Source: Escherichia coli | GTDB lineage: Bacteria; Pseudomonadota; Gammaproteobacteria; Enterobacterales; Enterobacteriaceae | DNA: 43,339 nt | Direction: 5' to 3' (one strand) | Assembly (NCBI RefSeq): GCF_003334315.1 | Contig: NZ_QOWR01000042.1 | Shown here: positions 28,729 to 31,132 of the stretch, one piece after another | Layout of the letters: each line of letters starts with the position of its first letter | Position numbering within the stretch: position 1 is the first letter of the stretch | The notes under the pieces: generated by a model | Told to the model about the DNA's origin: nothing | The model's input: only the letters and a program-made list of their open reading frames with translations | Database searches by the model: none | Made by a program: the position numbers and the translations under genes

Positions 28729-29400
28729 ATGATGCAGTTAGTTCACTTATTTATGGATGAAATCACTATGGATCCTTTGCATGCCGTTTACCTGACCGTA
28801 GGACTGTTCGTGATTACTTTTTTTAATCCGGGAGCCAATCTCTTTGTGGTAGTACAAACCAGCCTGGCTTCCGGTCGACGCGCAGGGGTGCTGACCGGGC
28901 TGGGCGTGGCGCTGGGCGATGCATTTTATTCCGGGTTGGGTTTGTTTGGTCTTGCAACGCTAATTACGCAGTGTGAGGAGATTTTTTCGCTTATCAGAAT
29001 CGTCGGCGGCGCTTATCTCTTATGGTTTGCGTGGTGCAGCATGCGCCGCCAGTCAACACCGCAAATGAGCACACTACAACAACCGATTAGCGCCCCCTGG
29101 TATGTCTTTTTTCGCCGCGGATTAATTACCGATCTCTCTAACCCGCAAACCGTTTTATTTTTTATCAGTATTTTCTCAGTAACATTAAATGCCGAAACAC
29201 CAACATGGGCACGTTTAATGGCCTGGGCGGGGATTGTGCTCGCATCAATTATCTGGCGAGTTTTTCTTAGTCAGGCGTTTTCTTTGCCCGCTGTGCGTCG
29301 TGCTTATGGGCGTATGCAACGCGTTGCCAGTCGGGTTATTGGTGCAATTATTGGTGTATTCGCGCTACGCCTGATTTACGAAGGGGTGACGCAGCGGTGA
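28729..29400 (+). CDS. yahN: LysE/RhtB-family amino-acid exporter
   Basis: 223-aa hydrophobic ORF; family assignment from memory. Confidence 0.8.
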   Translation: MMQLVHLFMDEITMDPLHAVYLTVGLFVITFFNPGANLFVVVQTSLASGRRAGVLTGLGVALGDAFYSGLGLFGLATLITQCEEIFSLIRIVGGAYLLWFAWCSMRRQSTPQMSTLQQPISAPWYVFFRRGLITDLSNPQTVLFFISIFSVTLNAETPTWARLMAWAGIVLASIIWRVFLSQAFSLPAVRRAYGRMQRVASRVIGAIIGVFALRLIYEGVTQR

Positions 29401-29416
29401 GCAGATAATTTACTCT

Positions 29417-29692
29417 CTACGTAATCAACCTGATTTGCCGAATCACGGCCATCGGCGATGATAGCCCCCGTAATGCGTGGTCCTTATTTCCGATAAGTTT
29501 ACTTGAGTCTTTAGCTTCCCATTTCAGCCCACTCTCCCCTGTGTGGGCTTTTTTCATTGGTCTGCCCCATCCTGAATAGCCAAACAATGGCAATGTTCCA
29601 CTTTGCAGGGATGATAATAAGGGGATCTGATTCAGAAGAGTTTTGAAAAGTTGGACCGCCATCGAGGCCTCGAACCCCGTACCATACAACAA
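29417..29692 (-). CDS. Hypothetical small protein (possibly yahM); doubtful
   Basis: 91-aa ORF in the ORF track; it is overlapped by the yahN-side terminator hairpin and by a tRNA-like structure, so coding status is uncertain. Confidence 0.3.
   Translation of the reverse strand: MLYGTGFEASMAVQLFKTLLNQIPLLSSLQSGTLPLFGYSGWGRPMKKAHTGESGLKWEAKDSSKLIGNKDHALRGLSSPMAVIRQIRLIT
29526..29555 (+). terminator. Rho-independent terminator candidate downstream of yahN
   Basis: AGCCCAC-(10-nt loop)-GTGGGCT stem followed by TTTTTT. Confidence 0.55.
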
Positions 29693-29722
29693 TCCTGGTT
29701 GTCGTCTGCTCTTCCTGATGAG
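29642..29722 (-). other. Degenerate tRNA-like element (possible tRNA remnant)
   Basis: Minus strand folds as acceptor stem CCGCCAT/ATGGCGG followed by T-CCA; D-arm GCTC-ATCAGGAA-GAGC with G18G19; T-arm CGGGG-TTCGAGG-CCTCG; anticodon region is non-canonical (4 extra nt, loop CAGGATT lacks U33). Confidence 0.3.
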
Positions 29723-30074
29723 CTAATGGCGGTTTTTGATATGAGCCTTACAGCATATTTTCTGTCAGGCTTGAGTGCGATGCGTAAGATACAGAAAAGA
29801 CCCCACACAAACATGATGGAATTATGATTTTTTTCATATGAATGTCAACCAACACATTCACAAAACATCTGCATGAGATCATTTTTTATACACCGCATGG
29901 CTGCGAAACCACTACTGGTGCTTTTTTAAGCGAAGTGTCGCCGATCACAACAAAATATCGGCGAAAAAAGAGATGGAATGCCAGTTGGCATACAGATATA
30001 CAGATGAAATGATTACCTGCATTGCGATTCACTCTCAGGTGGAATAACAACTTGCAGGTGGAACCCTTTCTGAA

Positions 30075-30890
30075 CTAAAGAGTGTAGCGGATTTTAACGT
30101 GCTTATTTACAGGATAATATCTGTCACCTAATTCCTGCACTCTATTAGATATCCATTCATTTAATCGCGCATCATCTCTGTATGTTTTTACGTCCAGAAC
30201 AGAGAGCAATAACATCACCAGTGATTCAGGAAAAACAGGGTAGATATTTTTTAAGTGTAATAATAATCCATGCGCAAGCGCCTGCTTAATGGGCGCGTCT
30301 GTCTCCGGAATAGACGACATTTCGCGAAGCCATTTTTCCACATGCATACACTCTTTCCCTTTAGGGAAAATTCTCAGCAAAGGCATATGGTATTCAAGAA
30401 GAATACATTTGCAATCTGTTCGCACTGAATCGATAAACTGCACTAATTTCTTAAGCCCGGTAAAGCGTCCAGCCTGCACGTTTGCTTTAATATCAAGAAA
30501 CGCATCATCCTGGTCATATACCCAAACTGTCCCTTTTTGATTTTCAAGTATGTGAAAAACAAACTTAACCGGGTGATCAGGGTAATCCATCCAGTCATAA
30601 AATCCAGGGAAATCATTAAACTGCACATTTATGGTGAGTGCGTTATCGTCTGACCACTCACAGTCTCGTACGGCAGCCATGAGATGAATGAGTTTGTCGT
30701 CATCGACTAAATCATCACGACAATCATAAGGATAATCATAATATTGTTTAATCAAAACCTTGAATATATCGACACAGGAAACCAGGGAGCTTTTGATATC
30801 CTCTGGTAACTGATTGTTTTTAACCGTATTAAGTATGCTTTGTTGCGTATATGGCATCAAATTATTGTGCGGAGCTTTTAATGATATCAT
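30075..30890 (-). CDS. yahL: Uncharacterised protein
   Basis: 271-aa ORF in a markedly AT-rich block; no recognisable motif. Confidence 0.75.
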   Translation of the reverse strand: MISLKAPHNNLMPYTQQSILNTVKNNQLPEDIKSSLVSCVDIFKVLIKQYYDYPYDCRDDLVDDDKLIHLMAAVRDCEWSDDNALTINVQFNDFPGFYDWMDYPDHPVKFVFHILENQKGTVWVYDQDDAFLDIKANVQAGRFTGLKKLVQFIDSVRTDCKCILLEYHMPLLRIFPKGKECMHVEKWLREMSSIPETDAPIKQALAHGLLLHLKNIYPVFPESLVMLLLSVLDVKTYRDDARLNEWISNRVQELGDRYYPVNKHVKIRYTL

Positions 30891-31058
30891 CGCGATCTCT
30901 CTTAAATAAAAATAAACGTCGCAGATAATAAAGCTCTGATTAAACCAGGCACTATCAGAAATCGCTCATAACTAACGTGTGAAGTATTGTGTACTGGAGG
31001 GCGTTAATTTAACAATTTAAATTTACGTTATAGGTTTTACTGCTACTTTGATATTATT

Positions 31059-31094
31059 TCGCTCTCCTTAACTAAAAAGTTAAGTGGAGAGCGA
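31059..31094. terminator. Stable hairpin downstream of yahK (possible terminator)
   Basis: TCGCTCTCCTTAAC / GTTAAG(T)GGAGAGCGA stem of about 14 bp with a short A-rich loop; no clear U-run on either strand. Confidence 0.3.
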
Positions 31095-31132
31095 AGTTAA
31101 TATGTTAAACCACAGGGTATTTATTAATTTTT

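Follow-up and report, generated by a model that had tools for sequence, protein, structure and literature searches.

The AT-rich block between the yahN and yahK stop codons is probably a mosaic at a genus-wide variable spot, which is anchored by yahN and by a domesticated relic of a phage tRNA. It appears to combine a module carrying the gene yahL with a small non-coding RNA and with yahM, a probable annotation artefact. The block is part of a 43,339-nt stretch of E. coli DNA, which was analysed as a whole and is called the window here. The initial annotation had proposed a horizontally acquired islet, probably silenced by H-NS. Its atypical composition and its absence from relatives hold, but the block does not behave as one unit and has three or more separate histories, does not look like a recent import, and no donor for yahL was found. 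The features of the block are the following, with the basis of each given last.

29401..29642, no strand assigned: yahN 3′ region and body of the yahM ORF (sequence, BLAST against related loci)
29417-29662, minus strand: annotated yahM ORF, 81 aa (annotation)
29652-29732, minus strand: tRNA-like element, 81 nt, 57% GC, unannotated (ARAGORN ‘Ser GGA’, fold, homology)
29733..29814, minus strand: predicted 5′ leader, ~82 nt (start inferred from the promoter)
29821..29848, minus strand: sigma-70 promoter, TTGACA-16 nt-CATAAT (scan for promoter-like sites)
29871..30061, no strand assigned: AT-rich spacer, ~40% GC, left edge of the lineage-specific AT-rich module (composition)
30062..30896, minus strand: 835-bp presence/absence segment (alignment and junction check)
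30075-30890, minus strand: yahL, 271 aa, 816 nt (intact ORF, dN/dS)
30897..31132, no strand assigned: yahL-yahK spacer, 32% GC, the most AT-rich piece (composition)

The GC content of positions 29401-31132 is 39.8%, compared with 53.2% across the window, in agreement with the AT-richness described before. In a sliding scan of the whole window, only 0.5% of the 1732-bp windows were as low in GC. The lowest of them (0.394) starts at position 29481, inside the block. However, the AT-richness is uneven. GC content is 45% in 29401-29651, 56.8% in the tRNA-like element, 39.8% in 29733-30074, 38.8% in yahL and 32.2% in the spacer between yahL and yahK (30891-31132). The flanking genes had been described as GC-rich, which is correct for yahK (53.3%), but yahN reaches just 49.4% and yahO 38.8%. 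Codon usage of yahL is unusual, as had been suspected. Its GC3 of 0.39 is the lowest among all ORFs of at least 150 aa in the window, and the deviance of its synonymous codon usage ranks third among 35 ORFs. The contents of the block were also described correctly, as yahL, the small ORF yahM and the tRNA-like element are all present and the ORF list contains no other supported gene. On the plus strand, the yahN 3′ region carries a terminator-like hairpin with a T-run (~29528-29556), and a weak Rfam match in 29401..29642 covers this hairpin and U-run alone. The promoter region of yahL presumably lies within the spacer 30897..31132. This spacer also contains a 34-nt palindrome directly 3′ of yahK (31060-31093). 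Its reading as an integron-type attC site was dropped because it is too short and isolated.

Comparison with related genomes indicates that the yahN-yahK site is a variable spot at the level of the genus. The piece 29401..29642 is found in E. coli and E. albertii and is absent from two other Escherichia lineages (L016 and L018). In BLAST comparisons, homology with E. albertii, L016 and L018 ends at ~29870. The adjacent spacer 29871..30061 is restricted to E. coli and a cryptic clade, of which L009 is the representative, and yahL was found in no lineage other than E. coli and one cryptic clade of Escherichia. In E. albertii, both yahK and yahL are missing at the site, and a 55-nt relative of the spacer 30897..31132 adjoins yahJ. 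L016 and L018 carry a Zorya type I defence system at that position. In Salmonella and Citrobacter, prpR-yahO-yahN is followed by unrelated genes, and the site contains neither the tRNA-like element nor the AT-rich block. That Salmonella, Citrobacter, E. albertii and other Escherichia lack the AT-rich part at this site is as would be expected of an islet. A conserved tRNA-like anchor beside lineage-specific cargo (yahL-yahK, Zorya type I or, in E. albertii, none) is reminiscent of tRNA-anchored island hotspots. In contrast to these hotspots, the cargo is located on the 5′ (promoter) side, without an integrase and without a duplicated 3′ half. The variation at the site looks like replacement between conserved flanks and not like site-specific integration.

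These distributions bear on the idea that everything between the stop codons of yahN and yahK came in as one islet that is silenced by H-NS throughout. The low GC content over most of the block, its absence from Salmonella and Citrobacter and the very low expression of YahL (PMC5053530) would be explained in this way. On the other hand, the body of yahM differs in its distribution from the tRNA-like block, and both differ from the module with yahL. Moreover, the tRNA-like core has a GC content of 57%, is present genus-wide and is driven by a promoter. Transcription of the yahM region has been reported (PMC12288877; bioRxiv 10.1101/2025.05.13.653802); this part, together with the tRNA-like element, is normal in GC, which argues against silencing of the entire block. 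There are no integrase or transposase ORFs in the window and no significant flanking or att repeats at the block. A recent import is also contradicted by synonymous divergence, since dS to the cryptic Escherichia clade is 0.665 for yahL and thus matches the values of yahK (0.623) and yahN (0.718). We consider arrival as a single silenced islet very improbable. As yahL has diverged in step with its flanks (dS ~0.65), it appears to be old. In principle, the copy in the cryptic clade could result from an ancient transfer instead of common descent.

Within E. coli, yahL is carried by 4076 of 5426 complete genomes, and the adjoining region 29401-30074 is present in 5173 of them. Overall, yahL is missing from 1350 complete genomes, about a quarter, and records of ST131 are among those without the gene. 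The gene is dispensable, as ~21% of the complete E. coli genomes that have the locus (~1100 genomes) lack exactly this ORF. The missing segment of 835 bp comprises the yahL ORF plus 13 nt on the 3′ side and 6 nt on the 5′ side. E. coli strains without yahL have position 30061 fused straight to 30897, and they keep the spacer 30897..31132. No microhomology was observed at the deletion junction. Imperfect repeats of 14 nt near the deletion ends are offset by 4 nt. For these two reasons, no deletion mechanism is claimed.

Where it is present, yahL is a real, fast-evolving orphan protein gene. In three comparisons, dN/dS was 0.167-0.193, indicating purifying selection on the frame, and this frame of 816 nt is unbroken across a dS of 0.67. 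Searches of 5.8 billion protein clusters and of 1.84 billion representatives revealed no relatives outside Escherichia. A scan of GTDB species, which was pattern-based so that distant copies could escape, found YahL in just two places, a metagenome-assembled genome resembling E. coli and a single cryptic clade. Restriction of yahL to Escherichia has also been reported (PMC11057252). The one homologue (P0027, 24-26% identity) is a full-length paralogue at another locus in rare E. coli. Searches of NCBIfam, PADLOC and PHROGs as well as a profile search of the PDB gave no match to YahL, Pfam gave sub-threshold noise only, and hhalign against the adjacent DUF2686 protein gave a probability of 0.1%. 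Structure prediction, which had been suggested as a check, gave no match to another fold: the AlphaFold model has a pLDDT of 59.5, and Foldseek of this low-confidence model against AFDB50 returned self-matches only. A role of YahL as a type III effector was raised because of its disordered N-terminus and the position of the paralogue near type III secretion genes, and it was set aside as having a low prior.

The lack of homologues beyond Escherichia, the low-confidence structure model, the abundance of YahL of <1 ppm of protein (PMC5053530) and the loss of the gene in 21% of locus-carrying strains could also be understood if yahL were non-functional, i.e. a newborn or decaying ORF in an AT-rich spacer whose composition reflects weak constraint. 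We regard this as highly unlikely in view of the dN/dS of 0.17-0.19, the intact frame and the full-length paralogue at another locus. Moreover, transposon insertions in yahL were reported to alter fitness despite its near-zero expression (PMC5053530).

As a real gene, yahL would be the sole gene of an old, lineage-restricted accessory module spanning ~29871-31132, and its expression would be held close to zero, the most plausible cause being silencing of AT-rich DNA of the H-NS type. The low abundance of YahL fits such silencing. A scan for the high-affinity H-NS motif showed no enrichment, and this result, like the reported fitness effect of transposon insertions in a gene with near-zero expression, weighs against the proposed reading. 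In its low GC and GC3 and its odd codon usage, yahL is similar to AT-rich, lineage-specific orphan genes of E. coli that are under xenogeneic (H-NS) silencing. It also shares with AT-rich orphan genes the lack of outside homologues, the near-zero expression and the promiscuous internal binding of RNA polymerase, for which SELEX peaks within yahL have been reported (PMC5493296). Unlike the silenced orphan genes, yahL is old instead of recent, and it is not universal in E. coli. An AT-rich orphan-gene patch as such is ordinary for E. coli.

The tRNA-like element corresponds to positions ~341041-341121 of the BW25113 record NZ_CP069132.1. It has a 7-bp acceptor stem, a D arm (GG), a T arm with the loop UUCGAGG and a discriminator U, and its CCA end is encoded. 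Its anticodon arm is aberrant, with four extra bases after the D arm. This arm can pair in two ways, as a stem of 7 bp that closes a loop of 6 nt, or as a stem of 5 bp with A33. It thus differs from the standard arm, which has a 5-bp stem, a 7-nt loop and U33, and it offers no readable anticodon that fits the body. The ‘Ser GGA’ call by ARAGORN is inconsistent, because the element does not have the long variable arm of serine tRNAs. With the Rfam tRNA model (RF00005, covariance-model threshold 29 bits), there was no match at E ≤ 1 in 4.5 kb or at E ≤ 10 in 321 nt, and argN of phage 933W reached 54.8 bits in the same test. The predicted fold has a free energy of -30.8 kcal/mol (z = -2.67), and within the tRNA-like family 97% of cells allow pairing in the acceptor and T stems. 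Variation is too low to yield more than almost nil covariation, so the fold rests on thermodynamics and on homology to a true tRNA. Across six Escherichia lineages, a sampling that leaves out E. fergusonii, none of the 81 positions varies (0/81), compared with 65-80% of positions in the flanks. The 81-mer is wholly identical in 4783 of 5200 E. coli records. Among 80 metagenome contigs with the 28-nt core, 79 have an unchanged 81-mer, all beside yahN. As the element does not look like a decoding tRNA, yet is under extreme purifying selection, it is most likely a structured non-coding RNA.

It is also conceivable, if unlikely, that the element is conserved at the DNA level, as a recombination, attachment or protein-binding site, or that it is still a decoding tRNA; under both readings it would not act as a non-coding RNA. 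Genes for tRNAs are classic integration sites, the adjoining gene content varies by lineage, IHF binds the promoter region (bioRxiv 10.1101/2025.05.13.653802), and ARAGORN accepts the element as a tRNA. However, the surroundings contain no integrase, and the genes that vary are located on the promoter side (5′), whereas integrases use the 3′ side. The invariance spans all 81 nt and not merely a core, and the promoter is conserved as well. Decoding is argued against by the failure with the Rfam tRNA model and by the absence of U33 and of a standard anticodon stem.

Relatives of the tRNA-like element are found in phages. Its identity to elements in the argN slot is 84.9% for phiP27, 80.6% for mEp460 and 75% for 933W argN, and these homologues occupy the slot Q-ileZ-[element]-argO in lambdoid and Stx phages. 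The match to the argN-slot element, at 75-85% identity, covers the acceptor stem, D arm, T arm and CCA, and the phiP27-type element shares with the chromosomal one both the 4-nt insertion after the D arm and the remodelled anticodon arm. A search of IMG/VR gave no instance of the K-12-type anticodon arm. In contrast to the phage ileZ-argN-argO cluster downstream of Q, the Escherichia element is chromosomal, only a trace of ileZ is left, and ARAGORN detected no argO near the element. While the copies in the phage argN slot vary, the Escherichia element is invariant genus-wide. We infer that the direction of ancestry was from phage to chromosome. The 81-nt gene would thus descend from the lambdoid ileZ-argN cluster found after gene Q.

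This kinship could suggest that the block as a whole is the stump of a decayed lambdoid prophage late region, consisting of a tRNA cluster and yahL as a cargo gene (‘moron’). Such an origin is consistent with the homology to the post-Q element of many lambdoid and Stx phages, with the remnant of ileZ that the leader seems to contain and with one metagenome contig that appears to join prophage genes to the tRNA-like element. Nevertheless, we consider it improbable. A tblastn search of 50,697 phage records gave no match to YahL, which also belongs to no PHROG family, and against plasmids only near-identical E. coli copies (≥97.8%) and no diverged relative were obtained; the records with these copies are laboratory plasmids of K-12 or have lengths of 1.2-4.9 Mb. 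Furthermore, yahL is located upstream of the promoter of the tRNA-like element, whereas phage cargo genes are downstream, and the element is genus-wide while yahL is found in two lineages only. No phage genes were found around the element in the window.

The best promoter-like site in the block, the sigma-70 promoter at 29821..29848, has 11 of 12 consensus positions, and 4 of its 28 sites are variable across the genus. Most likely, this site corresponds to the ‘yahM promoter’ of the literature, for which a transcription start and repression by IHF have been reported (bioRxiv 10.1101/2025.05.13.653802). The tRNA-like gene would be transcribed from this strong promoter of its own with an 82-nt leader. 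Between Escherichia lineages, 26 of 88 sites of the leader are variable. It contains a stem-loop (29771-29744), and lineage changes in the stem convert one G-C pair to A-U and one G-C pair to G-U. The leader may be the decayed T arm and 3′ end of ileZ, as suggested by a weak trace in the alignment to phage ileZ-argN. The intact acceptor/T-arm ‘top half’ would be expected to make the transcript a substrate of RNase P and of CCA-end handling. Tentatively, and with a probability somewhat short of even, we propose that a phage pseudo-tRNA was captured prior to the radiation of Escherichia, and that the resulting 81-nt element is now a genus-specific non-coding RNA with a non-translational role. 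The RNA could act, for example, as a decoy or regulator via its intact tRNA ‘top half’, or as a processing handle that releases the leader. A comparable case is the pseudo-tRNA ‘tRNA-Other’ of Bacillus cereus, which flanks a genomic island, is inactive in translation and affects the cell wall and antibiotic resistance (PMC3399842). It is likewise tRNA-shaped, has no assignable amino acid and borders variable DNA (PMC3399842). The two elements differ in that they have no sequence kinship and in that conservation alone points to a function of the Escherichia element.

The ATG of yahM falls within the 3′ strand of the acceptor stem of the tRNA-like element, and conservation of the frame is limited to its first 4-5 codons, which correspond to the 3′ end of the element. 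Translation before a stop extends over 45 aa in B2 E. coli (L001), and over 48, 11, 31, 14 and 22 aa in L002, L009, L014, L016 and L018, respectively. There are PGAP annotations that flag yahM as ‘frameshifted’. Because the frame is cut by stops or frameshifts in all other lineages examined, yahM is probably not a protein gene. Instead, it would be an annotation artefact on the tRNA-like transcript, and the reported transcription of the yahM region (bioRxiv 10.1101/2025.05.13.653802; PMC12288877; PMC7649339) is compatible with this.

Since yahL has been proposed as a universal qPCR marker for E. coli and Shigella (PMC11057252), its absence from about a quarter of the complete genomes qualifies this use. 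yahM is a y-ome gene that is studied by reporter assays and transcriptomics, and it looks like the tail of the tRNA-like transcript. If the 81-nt element is indeed a captured pseudo-tRNA with a non-translational role, the ‘yahM’ results from transcriptomics, promoter dissection and ‘core perturbome’ lists would really reflect the 81-nt RNA. The tRNA-like element itself is unannotated and genus-invariant, would represent a relic of a phage tRNA cluster and provides a testable case of a pseudo-tRNA kept for a non-decoding role.

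The gene order in this region is prpR, yahO, yahN, yahM, yahL, yahK, yahJ, and the region is 100% identical to that of E. coli K-12/BW25113. The features considered here are:

28307-28582, minus strand: yahO (GC 39%)
28729-29400, plus strand: yahN (GC 49%)
29401-29651: stretch following the yahN stop (GC 45%)
29417-29662, minus strand: yahM
29652-29732, minus strand: tRNA-like element, called 'tRNA-Ser GGA' by ARAGORN (GC 56.8%)
29848-29821, minus strand: conserved sigma-70 promoter TTGACA-16 nt-CATAAT, the best promoter-like site in the block
30075-30890, minus strand: yahL (GC 38.8%)
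between yahL and yahK: spacer (GC 32.2%)
31133-32182, minus strand: yahK (GC 53%, normal)

The initial annotation had described the block between the yahN and yahK stops (29401-31132) as AT-rich and compositionally unlike its surroundings. This was confirmed by GC windows, GC3 and codon usage. The GC content of the block is 39.8% compared to 53.2% for the window; just 0.5% of 1732-bp windows have a GC content that low (minimum 39.4%, starting at 29481). No other ORF of 150 aa or longer is as low as yahL in GC (0.388) or GC3 (0.39), and the synonymous codon usage of this gene is strongly deviant. As listed, the block is heterogeneous in GC. A 185-aa ORF at 34933-35490 (GC2 0.656) departs much further in codon usage than any other ORF of the window and probably does not encode a protein. 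The y-ome paper (PMC11551758) describes yahH as filled with REP sites. A 34-nt palindrome, CGCTCTCCTTAAC-TAAAAA-GTTAAGTGGAGAGCG, lies just 3′ of yahK (31060-31093) with a U-run on neither strand; in E. albertii, which lacks yahK, a 55-nt relative adjoins yahJ. Between prpR and yahO, 28170-28243 matches the REP-derived RNA family naRNA4 below threshold (28.6 bits against a gathering score of 59.5) and is probably an ordinary REP element.

To compare the site across genomes, loci were anchored on yahN orthologues. In E. albertii the order is prpR-yahO-[208-aa unknown ORF]-yahN, followed by homologues of 29416-29870, about 220 bp and yahJ, with neither yahK nor yahL. Two other Escherichia lineages (L016 and L018; yahN dS to K-12 0.68-0.85) carry yahN, 42 bp, homologues of 29643-29870 only and a Zorya type I system, whose ZorD and ZorC match PADLOC models with E = 0 and 2e-244. 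A cryptic clade (L009, L013; yahN dS 0.72), whose genomes carry the label E. coli, has the complete yahK-yahL-tRNA-like-yahN order, with YahL at 79% identity. In Citrobacter and Salmonella, unrelated genes follow straight after yahN, and the tRNA-like element is absent from these yahN loci. Every Escherichia sampled has the tRNA-like block; the yahM body is shared by E. coli, E. albertii and the cryptic clade, and the yahL module is confined to E. coli and one cryptic clade. The block therefore consists of pieces with three distributions. It did not arrive together, and the horizontally acquired islet proposed initially does not hold as one unit.

Gene content at this locus varies in further ways. 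In the non-coli lineages the Zorya genes (ZorD, ZorC and a MotB/OmpA-like ZorB; L016 6955-12633, L018 1103-6789, also the related locus L160) fill the yahL-yahK position, directly adjoining the conserved tRNA-like block. The yahO-yahN spacer, only 146 bp in K-12, is a second variable spot, holding an 878-aa MisL/AIDA-like autotransporter in one lineage (L016 3231-5867) and the unknown 208-aa ORF in E. albertii (L014 5163-5789). Where K-12 has yahJ beside yahK, some E. coli and the cryptic clade (L002, L008-L011) carry an operon for a sugar-type ABC transporter, made up of a binding protein, an ATPase and two permeases; K-12 retains a 75-nt fragment, which its annotation calls a truncated hypothetical protein (window 32183-32558 and beyond).

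Within E. coli, 29401-30074 is present in 5173 of 5426 complete genomes and yahL in only 4076. In the yahL-less allele (e.g. strain cS91a), 30061 is joined straight to 30897, and ST131 and other E. coli records give the same shortened match. The absent 835 bp cover the ORF and extend 13 nt past its 3′ end and 6 nt past its 5′ end; the junction shows no microhomology. IS1, IS5 or ISEc22 interrupts 29400-31132 in several strains (H1, H3, H20, H31, H56).

With a dN/dS of 0.167-0.193 in three comparisons and an 816-nt frame intact at dS 0.67, yahL is a real protein gene. Its dN is about 7-fold that of yahK (0.111 versus 0.015). Against the cryptic clade, the dS of yahL (0.665) is in line with that of yahK (0.623) and yahN (0.718), and K-12 differs from a yahL-less B2 strain by a dS of only ~0.07; therefore, yahL is older than E. 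coli and its absence reflects loss. In the cryptic clade the module still has a GC content of 33-40%. No homologue outside Escherichia was found among 5.8 billion clusters and 1.84 billion representatives; the protein has been described as a signature specific to E. coli/Shigella (PMC11057252). Rare E. coli strains carry, at a different locus, one full-length relative (P0027, 24-26% identity). This paralogue (L007 8001-8828) has yjiG/iadA on one side and, on the other, genes encoding an invasin-like protein of 1350 aa, a chaperone for type III secretion and an SseC-like translocator. No match was found in Pfam, NCBIfam, PADLOC, PHROG or PDB, or in phages; the plasmid hits were E. coli copies of near-identical sequence, carried by K-12 laboratory plasmids or 1.2-4.9 Mb records. 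The structure prediction suggested by the initial annotation gave a weak AlphaFold model (pLDDT 59.5) with no structural neighbours. YahL expression is below 1 ppm, and transposon insertions nonetheless affect fitness (PMC5053530). The gene is a predicted CRP SELEX target (PMC3105977), and strong SELEX peaks of sigma-28, sigma-24 and sigma-32 holoenzyme lie inside it (PMC5493296).

The yahM start codon lies within the 3′ acceptor strand of the tRNA-like element. Its frame of 81 aa in K-12 stops after 11-48 aa in six other lineages, justifying the earlier doubt about this ORF, and only 'MAVQ(L/F)', i.e. the tRNA-like 3′ end, is conserved. The ORF body contains, on the opposite strand, a terminator-like hairpin for yahN. 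For 'yahM', a transcription start and IHF repression (bioRxiv 10.1101/2025.05.13.653802), transcript overlap with yahN (PMC12288877) and induction by contact with host cells (PMC7649339) have been reported; our literature search found no paper tying yahM to a tRNA-like RNA. A 16-nt inverted repeat (29540-29555/29794-29809, 88% complementary) encloses the element and is not conserved in lineages lacking the yahM body. Through this repeat, the start of the tRNA-like transcript could pair with the antisense of the yahN terminator.

The tRNA-like element folds into a cloverleaf (-30.8 kcal/mol, z = -2.67) with a perfect 7-bp acceptor stem, D arm, T arm (loop UUCGAGG), discriminator U and encoded CCA. 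It has four extra bases after the D arm, an A at position 33 and no serine-type long variable arm. The Rfam tRNA model gave no match even at E ≤ 10, and Rfam 15 holds no family for it. Across six Escherichia lineages, 0 of 81 sites vary in the element, 4 of 28 in its promoter, 26 of 88 in its leader and 65-80% in the immediate flanks; at the leader's rate, the probability of no variable site is ~5e-13. The element is unchanged over its full length in 4783 of 5200 E. coli records, and 79 of 80 examined metagenome contigs with its 28-nt core contain the intact 81-mer, always adjoining yahN.

A counterpart with 75-85% identity occupies the ileZ-argO slot just after Q in many lambdoid/Stx phages and a phage-like plasmid, where PGAP labels it 'tRNA-OTHER'. 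In 933W this slot holds a canonical tRNA-Arg (54.8 bits), and phiP27-type phages carry a degenerate form there that shares the 4-nt insertion with the K-12 form. The K-12 form was not found in IMG/VR. On one gut metagenome contig (L062, 1.45x coverage, ~3000-4050), lambdoid prophage genes (RusA, a DNA methylase and an ileZ-type tRNA with anticodon CAT) lie 7 nt upstream of a K-12-type element, which is followed by the yahM body, yahN and yahO. Either prophage and chromosome truly recombined at the element, or the shared 32-nt 5′ half led to a chimeric assembly.

The initial interpretation is thus partly supported: for an AT-rich orphan module, not for arrival of the block as a single unit. The block is not recent, and no donor is identifiable. 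The module resembles the well-known orphan DNA of foreign appearance and low expression that occupies variable spots of the chromosome, and H-NS silencing most likely controls it. For the tRNA-like core, the best reading is a relic of a phage tRNA that was captured and is now retained for a role at the RNA level; we infer both its function and the direction in which it was transferred. As an AT-rich orphan module at a hotspot the block is ordinary, apart from one unusual neighbour.
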